A DNA stretch of 64,000 nucleotides from Bdellovibrionales bacterium (GTDB lineage Bacteria > Bdellovibrionota > Bdellovibrionia > Bdellovibrionales > UBA1609). Under the pieces are notes generated by a model, which saw only the letters and a program-made list of their open reading frames with translations, ran no database searches and was not told where the DNA came from. The DNA is taken from NCBI GenBank assembly GCA_015163875.1, contig JAAOIH010000002.1, forward strand, positions 17,574 to 81,573, given 5' to 3'. This document shows positions 21,078 through 31,949 of this stretch, in pieces. The translations under genes and the position numbers were made by a program. Numbering within the stretch: the stretch's first letter is position 1; the number at the start of each line of letters is the position of its first letter.

Positions 21078-21285
21078 GCACACCTGACCCCCAAACCAAA
21101 CCAAACCCCCTTTGAGGGTCAGGTACACCCCCCTCTAAACAGGGGCCTGCCGACCAAGTCAAACCAAACCCCCTTTGAGGGTCAGGTACACCCCCCTCTA
21201 AACAGAGGCCTGCCGACCAAGTCAAACCAAACCAACTTTGAGGGTCAGGTACACCCACTAAATAGGGGTGTACCTGACCCTCAAA
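21078..21285. repeat. REP-like locus A: degenerate half-site, three 63-bp-spaced arms and a terminal palindrome
   Basis: TTTGAGGGTCAGGTACAC at 21111, 21174 and 21237; reverse arm at 21268-21285; degenerate reverse arm at 21078-21095. Confidence 0.93.
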
Positions 21286-21287
21286 TT

Positions 21288-22685
21288 TTACCTAAGAATA
21301 ATATTGGCAATATCAACAACAATAAATAAAAATGATACCTGCACAATGGATTTATATGCCCCAATAGTTATTGGTATAATTGATAGGGGTATTTTTGTTT
21401 TAGAATTGTAATTAAAATTTTTTGTAGAAGCTGTTAGTTTAGAAGAAATATTTTCTATTCTGCTCATATTAAAATTTAAATCATAAATAGTTTCCCTGAG
21501 CATTTCTCTCACTTTAGAATGAGAGTCCCATGTTTTGCTAGTTTTTAATATCACGGCTAAAACATATTCAATATCGTAAATAAATTGTTGTATTTTATCG
21601 GAAGTTTTTCTATTTTCTGTTTTTATAAAATTCTCATAACTTTTATGATATGTATTTAGATTATCAAGCAAAGGCTTAAAGGTGTTACTCATCATTTCTG
21701 CCCCTATTGTGGTGCGAAGCTTCCATAAAATATTAGAAATCATCATAGAGTTTTCATGATTCATTCCAGAACGAATATCCAACAAAGATGTACGCCTATT
21801 TACATCACCTTCATGTCGCGCAACCCTTTCTTCAATATTGCGAAGAGGTGTATTGTCTTTATTAATTTTACCTATTTGTGGATTATTTAACATATGAGCC
21901 GCTCCAAAATCTGCAATGGCTTCATTCATAAAACTTTTGTTAACATAGGCAGGTATTGTGTAAGTGCTATGCATTAACGAATGAGTTCTTTCGTGGTACA
22001 GTATTGATTCACTCTCTACTGCGGCTTTATTACCGAACAAAGGATTCATAACAATAACTGTCTTTAGCTTTGGCGACCAGATATTTATTACAGGAGGGCC
22101 TATTGAGTGTGGACCACTTGCTGATGAATTATTAACGATTACACGGGTGATACTAGGTTTTTTAAATCCCATTTTCATCATAGTTTTATCAAAACTATCC
22201 AGGTTATTTGCTATTTTTTGTCCTATTTTTTTGGAATTTTTTAAATCTCCAACAACTTCTACAGTTTTATTATTTTTTGCTAATAAGCGATAAGGCCTAA
22301 CAAGAAGTTGTGCCCAAGATGTGTCTAGTAACATGACTCTAAGAACATCCTTAAGCTCTGTTAAAACTTCTTTTACAGATAAAGATGTAGTATCTTTTTC
22401 TAGTTTTGCCCAATTCGCAATTTCATCTTCCTTATATATTTTGTCTTTTTTTAATCGACTATTAGTAAATTTTATAGATACCTGTTCAGCACTTTGATGA
22501 AGTTCTCTAAATTTCAAAGTTTGAATTACTGGGTCACCAGCAAGTTGCACTCTATATGTTTCTCCTTTTTGAAAAGAGCTTTCTTGTAAAGAAGAAAACA
22601 ATGAAGAACAGACTGGCTGAGCTTTCCCTTTAATAGGAAAATATAAACTAATAGTACAAAGAATTATAATTAAGTATTTAAACAT
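21288..22685 (-). CDS. Secreted gluzincin metallopeptidase (thermolysin M4 / fungalysin M36-like)
   Basis: Signal peptide from MFKYL (ATG 22685; ORF track starts at 22706); HERTH (HExxH), NEAIAD third zinc ligand, PLRNI, HENSMMISNILWKLR; hydrophobic C-terminus. Confidence 0.72.
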   Translation of the reverse strand: MFKYLIIILCTISLYFPIKGKAQPVCSSLFSSLQESSFQKGETYRVQLAGDPVIQTLKFRELHQSAEQVSIKFTNSRLKKDKIYKEDEIANWAKLEKDTTSLSVKEVLTELKDVLRVMLLDTSWAQLLVRPYRLLAKNNKTVEVVGDLKNSKKIGQKIANNLDSFDKTMMKMGFKKPSITRVIVNNSSASGPHSIGPPVINIWSPKLKTVIVMNPLFGNKAAVESESILYHERTHSLMHSTYTIPAYVNKSFMNEAIADFGAAHMLNNPQIGKINKDNTPLRNIEERVARHEGDVNRRTSLLDIRSGMNHENSMMISNILWKLRTTIGAEMMSNTFKPLLDNLNTYHKSYENFIKTENRKTSDKIQQFIYDIEYVLAVILKTSKTWDSHSKVREMLRETIYDLNFNMSRIENISSKLTASTKNFNYNSKTKIPLSIIPITIGAYKSIVQVSFLFIVVDIANIILR

Positions 22686-22750
22686 ACTTCTTAATGTGCA
22701 AGGCATAATCCAGTTATTGTTTCATAGTAAAACACTTTATAAAAAGTAAC

Positions 22751-22900
22751 TAACTTTGAGTAACTTTGAGGGTCAGGTACACCCCCCTCTAAACAGGGGC
22801 CTGCCGACCAAGTCAAACCAAACCAACTTTGAGGGTCAGGTACACCCCCTAAATAGGGGTGTACCTGACCCTCAAAAATTCTCAAAAATTCTCAAAAGTT
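22751..22900. repeat. REP-like locus B
   Basis: Arm at 22765; 49-bp palindrome at 22828-22876; 10-bp micro-duplications TAACTTTGAG x2 and CTCAAAAATT x3 (third copy one mismatch) at the ends. Confidence 0.93.
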
Positions 22901-22935
22901 TAGACACTTATAAGTGCCTGTATTTATTTTGAATA

Positions 22936-22981
22936 TTGACTTTTGTGCATATCTGTATTCTATATACAGATATGCACAAAA
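22936..22981 (+). promoter_or_regulatory. TTGACT -35 box plus an 18-bp-arm perfect inverted repeat covering the ATPase start codon
   Basis: TTTTGTGCATATCTGTAT-TCTAT-ATACAGATATGCACAAAA (22941-22981); ATG at 22972 has no Shine-Dalgarno sequence. Confidence 0.65.
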
Positions 22982-24126
22982 TAAAAAGAGATATCTTATC
23001 CTTAGTTGAAAAAAAGCTACAAAGTAATCCAGTAGTGGCTTTGCTAGGGCCAAGACAATGTGGAAAATCGACTTTAGCAAAAGAGTATTTAAAAACTAAA
23101 AAAGATACTGTTTATTTAGATTTAGAAAACGATCAAGATCGTTTTAAAATTAAAGATATTTGGGAATTTTTTAATTACCATAAAGAAAAATTAATTTGCC
23201 TTGATGAAATTCAAAGATTGCCAGAAATTTTTTCACAAATTAGATCTTATGTTGATCAATCTTCTGGCAATGGAAGGTTTCTTATTTTGGGGTCAGCATC
23301 TAGAGATTTAATTAAACAAAGTTCTGAAACATTAGCAGGAAGAATTTCTTATATAGAGATGGGGCCTTTTTCTTATAAAGAATTACAAGACACTCAGTGG
23401 TTAAATGAACATTTTATTAGGGGATCTTTTCCCCGTAGTGTTTTGGCCAAAAGCCATGAAGAAAGTTTTGATTGGCGTAAAAATTACATAAGAACTTTTT
23501 TAGAAAGAGACATTCCAAATTTGGGTTTTCGAGTCCCATCCTCTGTGTTAAATAATTTTTGGCACATGTTAGCTCACTTACAGGGGCAAATTTTAAATGC
23601 CGACAAATTAGGAACTTCTTTAGGAGTGACGGCACATACTGTAAAAAATTATATACATATTTTAAAAGAAACTTTTATGATTAGATGCCTGCCTGCTTAT
23701 TTTTTTAATACAAAAAAAAGACTAATCAAGTCTCAAAAAATATATATTCGAGATACTGGAATTGTTCATGCTTTGTTAAATTTAGATAGTATAGATAATT
23801 TATTAGGGCACCCTGTATATGGTTTTAGTTATGAAACTTATGTTATAGAAACTTTAATAAATCTTTATCCTCAACATGAAGCTTATTTTTTTAAAACCGC
23901 AAAAGGGGAAGAGATTGATTTAGTATTAATTAAAGGACAACAAAAAATAGCTTTTGAAATTAAAGCCTCTGCAGTGCCAAAAATAGAAAAAGGTTTTTGG
24001 TCTGCATTGGATATTTTAAAACCTGATGAAGTTTGTATTATAGCTAAGGTAGATAAAGATTACCCAATACAAAATGGAGTGATGGTTAAAAGTCTTTCTA
24101 GCGTTGTTTCTAGCACTAAAGTTTAG
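22972..24126 (+). CDS. AAA_14 ATPase with DUF4143 C-terminal domain
   Basis: LLGPRQCGKST, LDEIQ, LGSAS, ETLAGR, K.YIRDTG, YETYV, EEIDLV..FEIK; start placed at MHKIK (ORF track starts at TTG 22936). Confidence 0.9.
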   Translation: MHKIKRDILSLVEKKLQSNPVVALLGPRQCGKSTLAKEYLKTKKDTVYLDLENDQDRFKIKDIWEFFNYHKEKLICLDEIQRLPEIFSQIRSYVDQSSGNGRFLILGSASRDLIKQSSETLAGRISYIEMGPFSYKELQDTQWLNEHFIRGSFPRSVLAKSHEESFDWRKNYIRTFLERDIPNLGFRVPSSVLNNFWHMLAHLQGQILNADKLGTSLGVTAHTVKNYIHILKETFMIRCLPAYFFNTKKRLIKSQKIYIRDTGIVHALLNLDSIDNLLGHPVYGFSYETYVIETLINLYPQHEAYFFKTAKGEEIDLVLIKGQQKIAFEIKASAVPKIEKGFWSALDILKPDEVCIIAKVDKDYPIQNGVMVKSLSSVVSSTKV

Positions 24127-24164
24127 TTTAAATAACTGGACTAACAGAGGCACACAGGTCTAGC

Positions 24165-24230
<66 letters not shown>

Positions 24231-24274
24231 TGTGTATTATATTTATAGAAGCAAAAATAAACACAGGAAATTTT

Positions 24275-25549
24275 ATGAAATTTTTAGCACTACTATTAAT
24301 ATTTGCACTAAGTTCATGCAATGGCATGAAGTGGAAAACTTCAAAAAATACTAAACCAACTAGAAAAATAAGTTTACTAAAGAGAGATATTTCTTCAAAT
24401 AAAGGAACCTCTACAGCCACAACTAAAATAATTTCTGGTGTCGAATGCTATTTATCAGTAGAAAGAAATGGCAAAATAATAAGAAGAAAAAAATTTCGAG
24501 AGCCATTAGGAACTGAATTCCATTTTTCTTCTAAAGTTGAATCTGGTGAATTTTATGCAATGATAGACCATAACCAAGAACATAGTAGAATTGCAATAAG
24601 CTCAAAGGCTGAAGACCTTTCATGGTCGTTTATTCATAATGGTAAAAAAGCATCTACTATTAAGGTTGCAGATTGTAGGAAAATAAAAAGAAACAAATTA
24701 GGAGCTGTGATTCGCTGTTTCCCTTCTGGGCAAGGGAGTACAAAAATTACGAAGAAAATTTCTTTTGATTGTGAAAGGAACAATAATGATGATTCTGTGT
24801 ATACAAAGCATATTGATTCTTTCTATGCAACAGGTGAAAACTCTCAGGTGAGGAGGGCTCTTGAGATGCTTTCCAAAGTGCCTATCTCACTGTCCTTTAG
24901 AGGAAGAGGGAGTAGTAAGATTTATAAAGTTGATAATCACAATTTAGTTTTATTGAGATATTATAAGACCCCATATCCGGAAAAGACTTGGCAAAAAGAG
25001 GGAAATTATGCGAGTGGCATTTATGAGGTTACTGGAGGAAAATTTTGTGATGAAAACAGCGGGCTGTTCTGTACTCCTTCATATGGAGTGCCTATCTCCA
25101 TTTGTGTGGCCAGAAAATCTGGTGTTTTGGTCCCTAATGACGTGGAGAGCGGCAGAACTAAAAAAACAGTCGCAGACAGTCTTGTCAATTATTGGTGGTA
25201 TAACATGGTGTCAAACCTTAAGTCAGGATTAAAAAAAGTTTTTAACTACAATAAAACAGCATCTTCAAAACAACCAAAACTAGGAACACTACGACTACTT
25301 AGATATTCAAAAAACTTAGATGACGCCTTAAAATCTTCTTATGATAACGATACGCGACTTCTACCTGAAAAAAACACTCCCCATGCACTAAGTGGCAATT
25401 ATTATACAAAGTACGCCGGTGTCAGCGTTGGAGTGCCGAAATGCCGCAATGGCGTGTCAGTACTTATGGAACATTCACAAGTAGAAAAATTAGAAGTAGT
25501 GTTTGATAGACGATATGACTATAACAAAAATAGGAATAAGAAAAAGTAG
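24275..25549 (+). CDS. Uncharacterised lipoprotein, visibly more GC-rich than the host DNA
   Basis: ATG 24275 after AGGAAA; MKFLALLLIFALSSC lipobox; no family recognised (ORF track starts at TTG 24230). Confidence 0.7.
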   Translation: MKFLALLLIFALSSCNGMKWKTSKNTKPTRKISLLKRDISSNKGTSTATTKIISGVECYLSVERNGKIIRRKKFREPLGTEFHFSSKVESGEFYAMIDHNQEHSRIAISSKAEDLSWSFIHNGKKASTIKVADCRKIKRNKLGAVIRCFPSGQGSTKITKKISFDCERNNNDDSVYTKHIDSFYATGENSQVRRALEMLSKVPISLSFRGRGSSKIYKVDNHNLVLLRYYKTPYPEKTWQKEGNYASGIYEVTGGKFCDENSGLFCTPSYGVPISICVARKSGVLVPNDVESGRTKKTVADSLVNYWWYNMVSNLKSGLKKVFNYNKTASSKQPKLGTLRLLRYSKNLDDALKSSYDNDTRLLPEKNTPHALSGNYYTKYAGVSVGVPKCRNGVSVLMEHSQVEKLEVVFDRRYDYNKNRNKKK

Positions 25550-25592
25550 TTTGCTTCTTATTCTCATTGCTATGATGGTGCATACATACTTA

Positions 25593-25620
25593 GTGTACCT
25601 GACCCCCAAACAAATCTGAT
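25593..25620. repeat. REP-like locus C (single reverse half-site)
   Basis: GTGTACCTGACCCCCAAACAAATCTGAT. Confidence 0.85.
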
Positions 25621-25650
25621 TGGCCTACTTGCCAATACTTTCTTTGTTCG

Positions 25651-25680
25651 TATATATCTCTATTTAAATAGAGATATATA
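25651..25680. promoter_or_regulatory. Perfect 30-bp palindrome 3 bp upstream of the resB-like start
   Basis: TATATATCTCTATTTAAATAGAGATATATA equals its own reverse complement; function not established. Confidence 0.6.
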
Positions 25681-25683
25681 ATC

Positions 25684-26835
25684 ATGAAAAAAATCAAACC
25701 ATTTATTAAATTTTTTGCCAAAACAGAAATTTTTTTCTACTCATTAATTCCATTAATGGCATTGGTAGTTTTAGGCACAGTTGCGCAAAAATATATTGGT
25801 CTATATCAAGCACAAGCTACTTATTTTTCATCTTTTTATTTTTTAGTATTTAAATATATTCCAATCCCTGGCGGCTATACTATTTTATCTATTATTTTTG
25901 TTAATTTAATTTGCAAACTTTTTATAAGCTCTTGGAAGTTAAACAAATTAGGAACAAACATCGTTCATATTGGAGTAGCATTATTATTATTTGGAGGTTT
26001 TTTAACAGCAGTTTTTACTCAAGAGGGGCAAATTACATTAGGGGAGGGGGAGTCTAAATCTTATTTTACAGATTATTTTAAAAATGAATTAATTTTACAA
26101 AAGGTTGTTTTTAATAAAAATAAACCTCGGCCAAAGATGCCAGCATTTTTTTCTAAAAAAAAACCATCTTATAAAGTTTTAAAAACATGGGTAAAAACTG
26201 ATTTTATTAAAAATAAAACAATATTTTTTTCTTCTGCAAAAATTAACATACAAATTTTAAAACATTTTAAAAATGTAGGTCTTAAAAAAAGAAACACAGC
26301 AGCGCCTGTTAATCAAAAAGGTTTTATAACTCAATTTTATTTATTTAATAAAAAAGAAGAAGTAAAAAAAGAACTTAACTCCGAGGCCTTAATATTTAAA
26401 GTTAAAGAAAATAAATTAGTGTATGGTATTTTTGATGGAATGCCTATTTCGCAAACCATATCAGTAAATGATAAAATATTTGTAATATCATTAAGGCGTA
26501 GGCGCTACCACCTCCCAATTAATATTAAATTAATAGATTTTAAAAAACTAAATTATACAGGAAGCTCTAAAGCTAAAAATTATCAATCTTTTATAGAGGT
26601 TAAAAATAAAGCAGGATTACAAAAAGCATTAGTTGAAATGAATCAACCTTTTAGATACAAAGATTACACTTTTTATCAGGCATCTTTTTCGCAAGAAAAT
26701 AATAAAGAAACTTCTGTGCTGGCAGTAGTAAAAAACAAAGGCAGAATTTTTCCATACTTAGCAAGTTTAATTATGTGTTTTGGATTACTGTTTCACTTAC
26801 TTGCATACTTGCCAAAAGTTTTAAGGAGAGTTTAA
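25684..26835 (+). CDS. ResB/Ccs1-like cytochrome c biogenesis protein (system II)
   Basis: GTVAQKYIG, VHIGVALLLFGG, MNQPFRYKDYTFYQASF; adjacent to ccsA. Confidence 0.82.
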   Translation: MKKIKPFIKFFAKTEIFFYSLIPLMALVVLGTVAQKYIGLYQAQATYFSSFYFLVFKYIPIPGGYTILSIIFVNLICKLFISSWKLNKLGTNIVHIGVALLLFGGFLTAVFTQEGQITLGEGESKSYFTDYFKNELILQKVVFNKNKPRPKMPAFFSKKKPSYKVLKTWVKTDFIKNKTIFFSSAKINIQILKHFKNVGLKKRNTAAPVNQKGFITQFYLFNKKEEVKKELNSEALIFKVKENKLVYGIFDGMPISQTISVNDKIFVISLRRRRYHLPINIKLIDFKKLNYTGSSKAKNYQSFIEVKNKAGLQKALVEMNQPFRYKDYTFYQASFSQENNKETSVLAVVKNKGRIFPYLASLIMCFGLLFHLLAYLPKVLRRV

Positions 26836-26836
26836 A

Positions 26837-28747
26837 ATGTTTTGGTTTAAAAAAATAATATTAATTATTATAAGCTTATCATTTAGCACATCTGCTAAAT
26901 CTTACGACTCTTTTTTATCTAAACAAAAAAATATAAATCACAAATCTACTTTTTTTAACAAAGATTTTAAATTACTTTCAAACTTACCTATATTAAGAGG
27001 TGGTAGAATGCAGCCCTTAGGTGATTTTGCAAAATCTTTTTTAAGCAAAATTTACTCGCGAGATACTTACAAAAATAAATCTGCAATACAAGTTTTTTCA
27101 ATAATTTTATTTACACCAGAGCTAGCTAAAAATTTAAATATTTTTAATATTCCTTATCCAAATGTGATACATACGCTTGGATTAAAGTGGACAGCTAAAC
27201 ATCGCTACTCTTTTAATAACCTGATTAAAGGATTTCAAAAAAACTTTAAGTTAATTGAAGCTTTGTCTAAAGCCAAAAGAGATAAAATGAGCGTTTCTCA
27301 AAAACATATTATAGATGTGTATTATAATTTTATAAGTTTTTTTGATTTATCTCAAAGCTTAGCTTTAACTAATAAAAATTTAAGCTTATCTAGTAAAAAG
27401 TGGGCCAATAAATTAGGATTAAAAAAAAATACACTTTATTCTTATTTAGATTTGGCGGGGATTACATCTAAAACAAATTTTTTAGCAAAAAAACTAAGCA
27501 AAAAAAAATCTGTAAATAAACAAGATATTAATTTTTTACTTTTTGGGGCAAAACTACAAAAGCTAAGTGAATCTCAAAATTACTCATCAACTTTTAAAGT
27601 TATCCCCTCACAATGGAAATCTGGAAACTGGAATTCTTTATGGGGAACAATTTTAAATGGAGAGGCAACTCCAAATAGTTATGTTTTATTTAATTTATGG
27701 GGCAAAGTAAAAAAATCTTATTTAAAAAATAATTTATTAATATGGAAGCAGTCTTTACAAAAAATTAATTTACAGGGCCAAAAATTTTTAACACAAAAAC
27801 AAAAAAGACAATTAAGCATGGAGTCTTTTTATAGCAAATGGGATTTGCTTTATAAATCTACAATTTTATATATTTTATCTTTTGTATTTTTGTTGATAAG
27901 TTTATTACTTTTGCCAGCTATATTTTCTAAACTAGCTTTATTTTCTGTATATTTAGCAATGCTTTTGCATGGCATAGCTATTAGTTTGAGAATTTTAATT
28001 TTATCAAGACCTCCAGTAACTACATTATATGAATCTATTTTATTTGTAGGATTTGCAGGAGTGATTAGCGCATTTTTTTTATTAAAATCAAAAACAAGTA
28101 ACATTAATTTATTTATATCTAGTTTTTTAGGCTCAGCATTATTATTATTATCTTTTGGCTACGCACAAGGTAACGATACTTTTTCAACATTAGAGGCAGT
28201 TTTAAATACTAATTTTTGGCTAGCAACTCATGTGTTAATTATAACAATTGGTTACTCTGCTTGTTTTGTTGCTGGAATTTTAGGACATATTTATTTTATT
28301 AAATCTATATTTAGGCCAAACGAAAATTTACAAAAACTTTATAAACAAATGTTAGGAGTTTCTATTTTAGCCTTATTTTTTTCTTTATTCGGAACTATTT
28401 TGGGAGGTATTTGGGCCGATCAATCATGGGGAAGATTTTGGGGATGGGACCCAAAAGAAAATGGAGCATTGTTAATTGTTTTGTGGCTTTTATTTATGCT
28501 ACATGGAGTGTTAGCAGGAAAAATAAAAGCTCAAGGCTACGCGCTTGGAATGGTCTTTATAAATATTATAGTCGCAGTCGCATGGTTTGGAGTAAATTTA
28601 CTAAGTGTAGGCCTGCACTCTTACGGATTTAACGAGGGAGCTTTTTTTAATCTATTGCTGTTTTCATACACAGAATTAATTTTTGGCCTACTAGCCTACG
28701 CATGGATTAATTACAAAAATTATTGCCTTGATTTTAGTAAAAAGTAG
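26837..28747 (+). CDS. ccsA: Cytochrome c biogenesis protein CcsA/ResC with large N-terminal periplasmic domain
   Basis: RPPVTTLYES, NFWLATHV, WADQSWGRFWGWDPKE (WWD motif), GVNLLSVGLHSY. Confidence 0.93.
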   Translation: MFWFKKIILIIISLSFSTSAKSYDSFLSKQKNINHKSTFFNKDFKLLSNLPILRGGRMQPLGDFAKSFLSKIYSRDTYKNKSAIQVFSIILFTPELAKNLNIFNIPYPNVIHTLGLKWTAKHRYSFNNLIKGFQKNFKLIEALSKAKRDKMSVSQKHIIDVYYNFISFFDLSQSLALTNKNLSLSSKKWANKLGLKKNTLYSYLDLAGITSKTNFLAKKLSKKKSVNKQDINFLLFGAKLQKLSESQNYSSTFKVIPSQWKSGNWNSLWGTILNGEATPNSYVLFNLWGKVKKSYLKNNLLIWKQSLQKINLQGQKFLTQKQKRQLSMESFYSKWDLLYKSTILYILSFVFLLISLLLLPAIFSKLALFSVYLAMLLHGIAISLRILILSRPPVTTLYESILFVGFAGVISAFFLLKSKTSNINLFISSFLGSALLLLSFGYAQGNDTFSTLEAVLNTNFWLATHVLIITIGYSACFVAGILGHIYFIKSIFRPNENLQKLYKQMLGVSILALFFSLFGTILGGIWADQSWGRFWGWDPKENGALLIVLWLLFMLHGVLAGKIKAQGYALGMVFINIIVAVAWFGVNLLSVGLHSYGFNEGAFFNLLLFSYTELIFGLLAYAWINYKNYCLDFSKK

Positions 28748-28832
28748 ATTCAGATTTAATTATAAAGGCTCTCATGCTCAGGCATCCCTTCGGGCTGAGT
28801 CGCATGATAGCCTTTATAATTAAATCTGAATC
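28747..28832. repeat. 86-nt hairpin with a 24-bp perfect stem between ccsA and groES
   Basis: GATTCAGATTTAATTATAAAGGCT ... AGCCTTTATAATTAAATCTGAATC with a GC-rich inner stem and C(UUCG)G loop. Confidence 0.88.
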
Positions 28833-28881
28833 CCCAATTAAACCCATCTAAGACAAAAAATTTATTTTTTAAATCTATAAA

Positions 28882-28909
28882 CTTGACTTTTTACACTTCA
28901 AACTCATAT
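28882..28909 (+). promoter_or_regulatory. Sigma-32-like promoter candidate for groESL
   Basis: CTTGAC-N14-ACTCATAT resembles the RpoH consensus CTTGAA-N13/14-CCCCATNT; no CIRCE present. Confidence 0.4.
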
Positions 28910-28938
28910 TTAGTCTGAAAACTTTATAAGGAGGCAAA

Positions 28939-30905
<1,967 letters not shown>

Positions 30906-30907
<2 letters not shown>

Positions 30908-30996
30908 GCTTTTATTTTTGAAATAAGTTTTATTTTTGAAAAAAGTTTTATTTTTGAAAAAAGTTTTATTTTTGAAAAAAGTTTTATTTTTGAAAA
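30906..30996. repeat. 18-bp tandem repeat (AAGTTTTATTTTTGAAAA, 5 copies) starting in the groEL stop codon
   Basis: Read directly. Confidence 0.92.
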
Positions 30997-31012
30997 AATA
31001 AAAATAATCTCC

Positions 31013-31047
31013 AAAAAGACAGACCTGCCGGGTCTGTCTTTTTTTTT
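31013..31047 (+). terminator. Intrinsic terminator of groESL
   Basis: AAAAAGACAGACC-TGCCG-GGTCTGTCTTTTT followed by a T-run. Confidence 0.85.
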
Positions 31048-31157
31048 GAGGATCAGATTTGAGGGTCAGATTTGAGGGTCAGGTACACCCCCTAAATAGG
31101 GGTGTACCTGACCCTCAAATCAAACAAAATTAACTTTGAGGGTCAGGTACATATAAA
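31045..31157. repeat. REP-like locus D
   Basis: 13-bp degenerate duplications (31045-31070), 49-bp palindrome at 31071-31119, half-site at 31135-31151. Confidence 0.93.
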
Positions 31158-31158
31158 T

Positions 31159-31196
31159 TTGATTTCAAAGAATAAATAGTGTACATTGTACACTAT
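31159..31196 (+). promoter_or_regulatory. Toxin-antitoxin promoter and operator
   Basis: TTGATT-N17-TACATT; palindrome ATAGTGTACA-T-TGTACACTAT (31176-31196) covers the -10 box and the ATG at 31195, implying a leaderless mRNA. Confidence 0.7.
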
Positions 31197-31461
31197 GGAG
31201 CAGTTTAATTGGGATGATGAAAAAAATAATTTATTAAAAGCTAGCAGAAACATGAGCTTTGAACAGGTTTTAGATTGTTTTGAAAATGGTAATTTTTTTG
31301 GGGTTTACGAAAATCCTAGTAGTAACTTTTCTCATCAGGAAGTGTTTTTAGTTAAAATAAATGACTACCCTTGCATAGTTCCTTTTACAAAAAACAAAGA
31401 CGAAATATTTTTAAAAACAATAATACCAGATAGGCGGTTTAAACAATTTATCAAGGAGTAA
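31195..31461 (+). CDS. BrnT-like (DUF497-type) toxin
   Basis: MEQFNWDDEKN.L..SRNMSFE, YPCIVPF, FLKTIIP typical of this RNase toxin group; start placed at ATG 31195. Confidence 0.8.
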   Translation: MEQFNWDDEKNNLLKASRNMSFEQVLDCFENGNFFGVYENPSSNFSHQEVFLVKINDYPCIVPFTKNKDEIFLKTIIPDRRFKQFIKE

Positions 31462-31464
31462 GTT

Positions 31465-31794
31465 ATGAATAAAAAACTAAACAAGAAAGAAAAAGAAATT
31501 GCTGATAATTTTGTAAGTGGTAAATTTAAAAAAAAAGCTTCTTCAAGTAATTTTAAAGCTATGGCACAAAAAACAAAAGAATCTAGAATAAATCTTCGAC
31601 TGCAAGTTAATGTATTAGAGTATTTTCAAAAATTATCACTAAAAGAAGGAATACCATATCAAACACTTATAAACAGTGTGCTTTTTAAAGTGGCCTCAGG
31701 ACAAATGATAGAAGGTAAGTTTTCTGACTTTGCAAAAACCATTGAAGAGTTAAAAAAGCAAATTTCTAATATGAATCGCAAAAAGCAAGCCTAG
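31465..31794 (+). CDS. BrnA/CopG-like antitoxin
   Basis: RINLRL...EGIPYQTLINSVL ribbon-helix-helix signature, directly downstream of the toxin. Confidence 0.82.
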   Translation: MNKKLNKKEKEIADNFVSGKFKKKASSSNFKAMAQKTKESRINLRLQVNVLEYFQKLSLKEGIPYQTLINSVLFKVASGQMIEGKFSDFAKTIEELKKQISNMNRKKQA

Positions 31795-31818
31795 TAAATT
31801 TTGTTAGTTTGTCCAAGA

Positions 31819-31949
31819 CTTGAGTATCAGATTTGACTTGAGGGTCAGGTACACCCCCTAAATAGGGGTGTACCTGACCCTCAAATCACTCAAATCAAAC
31901 AAAATTAACTTTGAGGGTCAGGTACATATAAAATAGGTACATATAAAAT
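31819..31949. repeat. REP-like locus E
   Basis: Palindrome at 31838-31885, half-site at 31910-31926, 9-bp (CTCAAATCA) and 15-bp (AGGTACATATAAAAT) micro-duplications. Confidence 0.93.

Follow-up and report, generated by a model that had tools for sequence, protein, structure and literature searches.

A REP-like repeat family, probably with its own REP-associated tyrosine transposase, at the borders of accessory genes in a Bdellovibrionales bacterium

The DNA considered here, referred to as the window, is a stretch of 64,000 nucleotides from a Bdellovibrionales bacterium, corresponding to C22:17574-81573 of a genome (G000) of 1.29 Mb, 29% GC and 50 contigs; the sequencing runs that contain the window are labelled as sponge metagenome. 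Within the window, clusters of a short GC-rich repeat border two groups of genes. The first group, found between the genes encoding ECH and ResB, comprises sequences encoding an exported protein, an ATPase of AAA_14-DUF4143 architecture and an orphan lipoprotein-like protein, and the second, found between groEL and a gene encoding an FAD oxidase, is a toxin-antitoxin (TA) pair of the BrnT/BrnA type (Table 1). In the following, the repeat is treated as a repetitive extragenic palindromic (REP) sequence and is considered together with a gene, found elsewhere in the genome, that is predicted to encode a REP-associated tyrosine transposase (RAYT). For comparison, a genome from the same genus was used (G001; the CcsA protein is 77% identical to that of G000), with 1.244 Mb of its sequence and its gene set being compared to the open reading frames (ORFs) of G000.

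When the window was searched for the REP core GGGTCAGGTACAC, allowing at most two mismatches, 14 copies were obtained, as compared to 0.11 expected from dinucleotide-preserving shuffles. These are confined to positions 21116-21280, 22770-22871, 25593-25605, 31076-31152 and 31842-31927, in agreement with a preliminary description of the same DNA, in which about 15 motif copies were placed in five clusters. The clusters are lengthened by further units, degenerate or incomplete, at 21078-21096 and 31045-31070, and three kinds of element are seen in them, namely, direct arrays (such as a 63-bp unit repeated 2.5 times at 21097-21256 in w1), four inverted doublets and partial units at the cluster edges. 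The palindrome of about 49 bp previously described does occur, in four instances, although the unpaired C assigned to it reflects a 5C/4G asymmetry of the loop and not a bulge in the stem. As single-stranded DNA, the window doublets fold into perfect stems of 21-23 bp with loops of 5-7 nt and folding energies (dG) of -24 to -28.5 kcal/mol (z -8 to -12); in the case of the w1 hairpin, these values are -24 kcal/mol and z -10. One REP unit plus linker folds no better than shuffles (z 0.06).

The two flanks of each cassette had been said to share linker sequence with each other, and this holds. Clusters w1 and w2, which flank the gene encoding the 472-aa protein, share a 113-bp stretch in direct orientation (98% identity), and w4 and w5, which flank BrnTA, share a directly oriented stretch of 121 bp (84% identity), with flank similarity between the two cassettes being lower than within each. 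The CCTGACCCCCAAA variant seen in the half-unit that follows ECH recurs at 25593-25611, just upstream of the conserved resB promoter region, such that the entire ECH-resB island lies between outer direct repeats. Also as previously claimed, all five clusters touch foreign-looking genes, in the sense of genes missing from G001; the cargo genes, at 28-35% GC, resemble the genome in this respect, and compositional foreignness was not seen.

Table 1. Repeats and neighbouring genes in the window (positions are those of the window).
Feature	Position	Strand	Description
Degenerate REP half-unit gCACACCTGACCCCCAAA	21078..21096	-	Immediately 3' of the ECH stop codon; left-hand member of the outer direct repeats that bound the ~4.5-4.6-kb island
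REP cluster w1	21097..21285	+	Three direct REP units with linker; hairpin doublet at the end (21237-21285)
Cassette gene 1	21288..22706	-	472-aa exported protein with HExxH motif (HERTH); absent from G001
REP cluster w2	22751..22897	+	Two direct units and a hairpin doublet; 10-bp stutters at both edges
AAA_14-DUF4143 ATPase	22936..24126	+	Pfam; PADLOC PDLC04790 (PDC-S01) at 2.4e-84; absent from G001
Orphan 439-aa lipoprotein-like gene	24230..25549	+	In the REP-bounded compartment of the ATPase; absent from G001
Single REP unit GTGTACCTGACCCCCAAA	25593..25611	-	Right copy of the outer direct repeat
REP cluster w4	31045..31157	+	Past the groEL terminator; 13-bp stutter x2.9, hairpin doublet, one extra unit
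BrnT-like toxin	31186-31461	+	Pfam; absent from G001
BrnA/CopG-like antitoxin	31465-31794	+	Pfam; absent from G001
REP cluster w5	31819..31949	+	Hairpin doublet, one extra unit, 15-bp stutter

Genome-wide, at least 82 units were counted in about 23 intergenic clusters, and the REP 11-mer is by far the most frequent GC-rich repeated word in G000. The unit can be written as AYTTGA-GGGTCAGGTACA-C, where the 12-mer GGGTCAGGTACA is invariant in 82 units and the AYTTGA head is conserved; a few variant units (GGGTCAGGAC, GGTACTGACCC) are also present. Of the 82 units, 32 are taken up by 16 inverted doublets, with loops of the CCCC(C)-TAAATA/ATTTTA/TAAAAA-GGGG(G) type, and the other 50 are non-folding singles in direct arrays. 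Each doublet thus presents what defines REP doublets forming hairpins (REPINs), i.e., two inverted REPs that are separated by a short spacer and fold as one long hairpin. REPs themselves are described as imperfect palindromes of 20-40 nt headed by GTAG or CGTC; in G000, the head is AYTTGA and only doublets fold. A palindrome so headed is found in most but not all described REPs (PMC3733652), and since the tagged palindrome is not universal, its absence is treated here as a difference rather than as an exclusion. No REP was detected in 40 relatives, and 185,579 species representatives yielded single matches at chance level only. Three one-mismatch matches within genes are due to chance.

Clusters are found between conserved genes at tig|ctp, 356-aa gene|priA, xerD-like|rpmF and a conserved divergent pair. 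As such, the earlier statement that no cluster lies between two housekeeping genes is true inside the window but not across the genome. At C22:82713-82727, just past the end of the window, the 356-aa gene terminates in ACT TGA; as this TGA belongs to the REP head CTTGA, the first REP unit provides the stop codon. A further cluster, made of variant units, lies in frame inside a conserved lipoprotein-like gene (C3:2436-3560), where a GGGTCAGGAC-type hairpin (C3:2695-2734) and stutters account for about 39 residues that are extra relative to the G001 ortholog. This in-frame palindromic repeat recalls the palindromic elements of Rickettsia, which, like the dRS3/NIME and Correia elements of Neisseria, are species-specific repeat mosaics that flank variable genes and serve as recombination substrates. 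The Neisseria and Rickettsia elements comprise different sequences and enzymes, with no RAYT known to be involved.

The preliminary description had predicted a trans-acting enzyme encoded elsewhere and had proposed that a Y1/HUH transposase flanked by the same arms be sought. Such a gene exists, in single copy and on a contig other than that of the window. The only match to the Pfam family Y1_Tnp (PF01797) in G000 lies at C35:2096-2671 on the minus strand and corresponds to a product of 189-191 aa (57-58 bits; cut-off, 23 bits), in which HFH (residues 60-62; H60 and H62) and Y120 in the sequence YIEENP (YxxxNP) are invariant in 15 homologs. A family-profile search of solved structures returned E. 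coli TnpA-REP (4ER8) as the best match (E 1.4e-6), followed by ISDra2-type transposases (E 0.004); when the single sequence was used to search the solved structures, nothing was found, the 4ER8 match needing the family profile. On either side of the gene lie direct REP mosaics (C35:1871-2075 and 2796-2956) that are 95.6% identical over 183 bp, and a flanking mosaic of 183-194 bp is shared, at 92-93% identity, with a HipBA pair. The position of the RAYT gene between two copies of a dispersed REP mosaic argues for a REPtron, i.e., a RAYT accompanied by its own REP population, including the mosaics known as bacterial interspersed mosaic elements (BIMEs).

The closest relatives of the RAYT, sharing 50-57% identity with it, are proteins of 236 aa found for the most part in marine Gammaproteobacteria (Methylococcales, Methyloprofundus, Piscirickettsiaceae), whereas RAYT copies within the order to which the window belongs are at most 35% identical. 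Two gammaproteobacterial RAYT loci are flanked by an inverted repeat, TCAAGGGGTCAGCCAGCTTGA, the GGGTCAG core of which is common with the G000 REP. In one of these (L275 2197-2219), the right-hand copy of the inverted repeat encodes the last codons and stop (NQAG*) of a 236-aa RAYT homolog; in the other (L276 2192-2220), a repeat copy overlaps the 3' end of a gene for a 240-aa homolog. G001 contains no RAYT. Given the absence of REPs from relatives and of a RAYT from G001, together with the marine gammaproteobacterial affinity of the closest RAYTs, the RAYT/REP pair looks to have been acquired recently, by horizontal transfer.

Taken together, the repeats and the enzyme probably constitute a REPtron system, in which a lineage-specific REP/BIME (REPIN-like) family is accompanied by its cognate RAYT. 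Except for a tagged, self-folding unit, the features of such a system are present: a Y1 HUH protein of the TnpA-REP clade, a single-copy gene bracketed by repeats, and lineage-specific repeats that are extragenic, with the exception of the in-frame variant cluster. In the E. coli REPtron (PMC3333891, PMC8266576, 4ER8), too, a single-copy Y1 HUH gene is bracketed by its own repeat mosaics, with many more repeats dispersed between genes, where they stand alone, form inverted pairs or are amplified locally into arrays; loss of the enzyme gene can leave the flanking mosaics in place, and in some strains a TA operon occupies the equivalent slot. E. coli TnpA-REP cleaves and recombines BIMEs in vitro, and both precise loss of tnpA-REP with retention of BIMEs, as in B2 strains (PMC3333891), and replacement by hicAB have been reported in this species (PMC3333891, PMC8266576). 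The G000 system differs in that its unit is without the GTAG tag, without a bulge and not palindromic alone, in that its RAYT belongs to the distant 236-aa family and is C-terminally shortened, and in its low copy number (about 82-95) and strong enrichment around accessory defence genes. Similarly, Pseudomonas REPIN-RAYT systems (PMC3116915; Nunvar et al. 2010) show inverted REP doublets as long hairpins, a flanked single-copy RAYT and a species-specific sequence. These, however, are described as ancient and vertically inherited, and their REPs avoid accessory genes (PMC3390384), unlike the repeats of G000. With IS200/IS605 elements (IS608, ISDra2), the G000 system shares a related Y1 HUH core and, by analogy, the recognition of hairpin ends as single-stranded DNA, such that anything between two co-oriented hairpins would, in principle, be transportable. 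Yet, those elements are recognised by several identical transposase-carrying copies, whereas in G000 there is no multi-copy autonomous element, the gene is single-copy, the place of clearly different left and right ends is taken by long direct-repeat mosaics, and the bracketed segments show neither duplication nor evidence of having moved.

In a different explanation, the hairpins would be selected mainly as terminators or insulators, or as mRNA-stabilising 3' structures, that protect a compact genome against transcriptional read-through at the borders of newly acquired genes, with the RAYT being incidental. Very stable hairpins are indeed found at gene 3' ends and between convergent genes, and termination and mRNA stabilisation are among the known roles of REPs (PMC3733652). 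Nonetheless, a terminator scan of the window picked only the doublet at 22829-22875, the window doublets having no proper T-run, and no Rfam family was matched in the window. Moreover, groEL retains its own canonical terminator just upstream of w4, 50 of the 82 units are singles that do not fold, and some clusters occupy divergent promoter regions or, in one case, an ORF. A primary role of this sort is, accordingly, considered highly improbable.

Examination of the equivalent regions in G001 offered a view of the junctions without repeats. No REP and no high-copy GC-rich repeat is present in that genome; 1011 G000 ORFs are shared with it, 56 are weakly matched and 152 are absent. The cargo genes of the window are all missing from G001, as is any AAA_14-DUF4143 gene. 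A comparison with related genomes had been proposed in the preliminary description as a way to find sites lacking cargo, and these were encountered in G001, as short spacers or different genes. The genes encoding ECH and ResB, separated in G000 by ~4.5-4.6 kb that hold three genes, are adjacent in G001, with a 154-bp spacer. Between the genes encoding GroEL and the FAD oxidase, where G000 carries BrnTA, G001 presents a different ORF of 116 aa. The 356-aa gene and the PriA gene overlap at their ends in G001, leaving no spacer, and are separated in G000 by a 214-bp array of five REP units. At tig/ctp, an AT-rich spacer in G001 corresponds to a REP cluster in G000, and the conserved divergent pair (286 aa/366 aa), without a REP in G001, likewise has a REP cluster in G000. 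Finally, the GlpK gene and the ABC-permease operon, 68 bp apart in G001, each border a REP cluster in G000, where they lie on separate contigs; beside the ABC permease, the order in G000 is genes of 449+ and 393 aa, AAA_14, AAA_14 and a gene of 168 aa, with a REP cluster at each step. The cargo-free ECH|resB spacer of G001 (L015, i.e., G001:C27, 2833-2905) contains GC-rich motifs of its own (GGGACGGACCC, GGGGCGGGCCCC and GGGGCAGGCC); read as its reverse complement, one of these is similar to GGCCTGCC, a linker motif of G000. The idea of a second repeat family in G001 was, however, rejected, with these motifs being local only and not found elsewhere in that genome.

The distribution of the repeats relative to G001 was also assessed quantitatively. 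At least one neighbour absent from G001 was noted for 13 of the 19 scored REP sites, as compared to 185 of 1150 other intergenic sites (odds ratio, 11.3; Fisher p 7e-7). Because neighbouring sites are not independent, the count was also made by region, yielding 7 of 14 against a background of 17% (binomial p 0.005). REPs are, therefore, over-represented at a particular subset of accessory genes. At the same time, about half of the REP regions are flanked by conserved genes on both sides and one cluster lies in frame within a gene, such that the proposal that the repeats mark only accessory-gene boundaries is wrong. Only seven of the 62 G000-specific islands contain REPs, and most of the PDC-S01 and TA genes are found in these seven. 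Cargo associated with REPs includes five of the seven AAA_14-DUF4143 genes, BrnTA, HipBA, AbiEi with a REP-truncated AbiEii, and small exported proteins. This cargo is defence-like; proteins with the AAA_14 plus DUF4143 architecture match profiles of PDC-S01, a candidate defence family (E 2.4e-84 and 4.4e-123; PADLOC). In the case of AbiEii, the toxin ORF (L147 1-373/G000 C35:1-213) ends at residue 124 of about 290, at the start of a REP, with AbiEi being intact; the toxin gene has been truncated by a REP event.

Evidence for variation came from another publicly available assembly, also of this population (JAAGOD01; 99.6-100% identical to G000), two contigs of which (L158 and L170) include additional REP-bounded segments. 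Depths were taken from assembled contigs, which break at every REP, in two runs of one sample and are indicative and not proof. Contig L158 carries an extra 1.3-kb segment containing a gene for a 339-aa secreted protein, placed between C26:10349 and C26:10354, with the end points of the difference lying in co-oriented REP units that share 9-15 bp. The depth of this segment is 3.4-5.8 in the two runs, as compared to 22.7/23.4 for the adjoining HipBA contig and 10-18 for the flanks; no diverged allele was detected even at 80% identity, and no homolog was found in G000. The REP-bounded gene appears to be carried by only about a quarter of the genomes in the population. As a G001 ortholog (44% identical) occupies the same neighbourhood, the gene is ancestral, having gained REP flanks and having been lost from most genomes. 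In contig L170, AAA_14 and lipoprotein genes are inserted between two pieces of a REP array that is uninterrupted in G000, at a depth of 3-7 as compared to 23. The RAYT contig, in turn, has a depth of 13.7/9.1, as compared to 28.8/24.1 and 37.5/33.4 on either side. This points to a RAYT that is itself not fixed, recalling the E. coli B2 strains in which tnpA-REP is gone but the BIMEs remain (PMC3333891). As such, three REP-bounded units, RAYT included, look to be unfixed in the sampled population. Depths for the remaining cassettes are 0.63-0.97 of that of the adjacent core.

To the right of the L170 insert, at 1869-1914, lies a 46-bp copy, with one mismatch, of the 3' end of the 356-aa gene (G000 C22:82682-82727), followed by the REP array; the lipoprotein ORF of the insert terminates within this copy. 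Such an arrangement points to a putative homologous event of the Campbell type or to a circular form. Two apparent deletion joints were rejected, since the sequence at the first (L180 1862->2733) matches a paralogous cluster at C48:55160-55234, and the second (L159 5049->5888) was judged to be a contig end stopping in the similar C24a cluster.

These observations can be accommodated by the REPtron reading as follows. The RAYT would nick and rejoin single-stranded REPs, leading to their spread and local amplification. In a compact genome, where the median intergenic spacer is 30 bp, clusters would survive where they do no harm, such as at convergent gene ends and at the flanks of dispensable, mostly defence-type genes. 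Co-oriented REP units that bracket a gene could then recombine, removing or restoring that gene, in a reaction that may be catalysed by the RAYT, result from hairpin-stimulated slippage or depend on RecA. Such REP-REP recombination would give rise to the integron-like look of the locus and to differences between strains. Of the features at hand, the shared stretches of 9-15 bp and the 10-15 bp stutters at REP/flank borders favour the enzyme or slippage, and the direct-repeat flanks of 113-194 bp and the 46-bp gene-end copy favour homologous events.

The same data bear on a stronger proposal, namely that REP arrays and RAYT form a hairpin-based, integron-like exchange platform. Here, the RAYT would excise a segment between co-oriented REP hairpins as a single-stranded circle and insert it beside another REP, such that REP clusters would be sites for capture and exchange of defence and TA cassettes, which would be re-inserted at other REP arrays or deleted. 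IS200/IS605 Y1 enzymes do mobilise whatever sits between their two hairpins (PMC6006769, PMC8266576). Consistent with such exchange, gene-by-gene partition by REPs is seen at three core-gene junctions, namely ECH|resB, glpK|ABC permease and the hisC-tRNA region (with HipBA and the secreted protein), where G001 has spacers of 68-154 bp or different genes. In addition, the RAYT and the HipBA pair share a flanking mosaic, one REP array is bare in the majority genome and filled in a minority contig, the 9-15 bp common to the L158 end points is short for RecA, and BrnTA, HipBA, AbiEi/AbiEii and PDC-S01 are cargo typical of integron arrays. Against this, none of the cassettes has a second copy in the genome, with at most 29% identity among the seven AAA_14-DUF4143 genes. 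No circle or donor-empty junction turned up among the assembled contigs, which break at the repeats, and the two apparent joints were judged to be paralogous clusters. The 339-aa gene was not captured, given its G001 ortholog in the same neighbourhood; rather, the repeats came to the gene. REPs are missing from 55 of the 62 accessory islands and lie also between core genes and within one gene, and one AAA_14 gene is bounded not by REPs but by a 52-bp duplication of the tRNA-Tyr 3' end. The long direct-repeat flanks and the gene-end copy resemble homologous or Campbell-type events and not Y1 peel-and-paste, and transposition as a unit does not occur in the REPtrons examined to date (PMC3333891). 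Capture of genes and their shifting between REP sites thus seems unlikely, and the exchange platform as a whole is equally doubtful. The preliminary view of the hairpins as recombinase capture and excision sites is partly supported, by the existence of a RAYT, by the cargo-free sites of G001 and by the variation in the sampled population, and is at odds with the lack of duplicated cassettes and the many REP-free islands. Were the platform nevertheless real, a streamlined symbiont would have a small defence repertoire that is reshuffled rapidly at a few safe junctions between core genes, and Y1 transposases would join the known means by which cassette arrays are built.

The term integron-like, as previously applied to the cassettes, is fair for their layout rather than for a mechanism. 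As in integron arrays, including sedentary chromosomal ones, units of one or two genes lie between folded imperfect palindromes, the cargo is of the TA and defence type, and presence or absence varies. One could, therefore, envisage an integron-like or Xer/dif module in which a tyrosine recombinase acts on folded or duplex repeats, the more so as a REP-type hairpin occurs within 90-350 bp of both tyrosine recombinase genes of G000. Yet these two recombinases, the only ones present, are of the XerC/XerD type (~295 aa) and are both conserved in repeat-free G001, and with integron-integrase models they reach only 60-111 bits (cut-offs, 265-435). The window clusters contain neither RYYYAAC/GTTRRRY cores nor a dif-like 11-6-11 site. 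Where attC sites have R''/L''-L'/R' cores, extrahelical bases and co-oriented cassettes, the G000 stems are perfect and gene orientation is mixed. Nor is there an IntI or an attI/Pc platform; instead, separators are variable and multi-unit, and several small arrays lie at different core junctions. An integron or Xer module was, therefore, rejected, as the least plausible of the explanations considered.

Returning to the REPtron, several points weigh against this interpretation. The sole NCBIfam match of the RAYT, NF047646 (REP_Tyr_transpos), scored 65 bits, under the equivalog cut-off of 80, and the protein is without the ~45 C-terminal residues present in its 236-aa relatives; any activity of the protein on REPs is putative. 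The lack of a GTAG or CGTC tag and the inability of the single unit to fold are unlike the best-studied REPs (PMC8266576; PMC3733652). Accessory regions in the P. fluorescens group are 'REP deserts', REPs being a mark of the older core genome (PMC3390384), in contrast to the enrichment seen in G000, and simple tolerance of repeats explains neither that only seven of the 62 islands contain REPs nor that most of the PDC-S01 and TA genes lie in those few. Lastly, the polymorphism was deduced from contig depths and not from junction-spanning reads.

With these points in mind, what is new here is the host lineage, the evidence of a putatively recent horizontal acquisition and the architecture of the unit, together with a gathering of REP mosaics around genes of the defence and TA type, where there are signs that gain and loss continue. 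For questions about the spread of REPs and the role of RAYTs in their hosts, this population offers an unusually clean natural case, combining a seemingly recent RAYT/REP acquisition, a repeat-free sister species that defines the ancestral junctions and a copy number low enough for every cluster to be followed, and entire REP-bounded genes, RAYT included, seem to be present in some co-existing strains and absent from others. The clustering of REPs at defence and TA genes suggests a capacity of REP mosaics to drive the acquisition and loss of dispensable genes while a genome is being reduced.

Several further features of the cargo and its surroundings were noted. The 472-aa protein matched no Pfam, NCBIfam or PADLOC family. 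The window ATPase is one of seven very divergent AAA_14-DUF4143 paralogs in the population, with its best outside homologs being 59-67% identical and coming from diverse phyla. Between its gene and that of the orphan lipoprotein lies a (TTG)23 microsatellite (24165-24233), which could be a contingency-type repeat. A different AAA_14-DUF4143 gene (C26:5714-6907) lies directly 3' of tRNA-Tyr and is followed by the 52-bp copy of the 3' half of that tRNA; the region C26:5560-7050 (tRNAs, L158 5318-5496) is an island of one gene that has att-like direct repeats but neither an integrase nor REPs. In the window, an 18-bp unit, TTTTATTTTTGAAAAAAG, is repeated 4.9 times at 30910-30998, between the groEL stop codon and the groEL terminator, and is not found in G001. 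Y1 transposition produces no target duplication. Tandem stutters of 10-15 bp straddle the borders between REPs and unique flanks at window positions 22751-22770, 22871-22897, 31045-31082 and 31920-31949, with comparable runs at C48:55030-55092 and C24:2780-2826.

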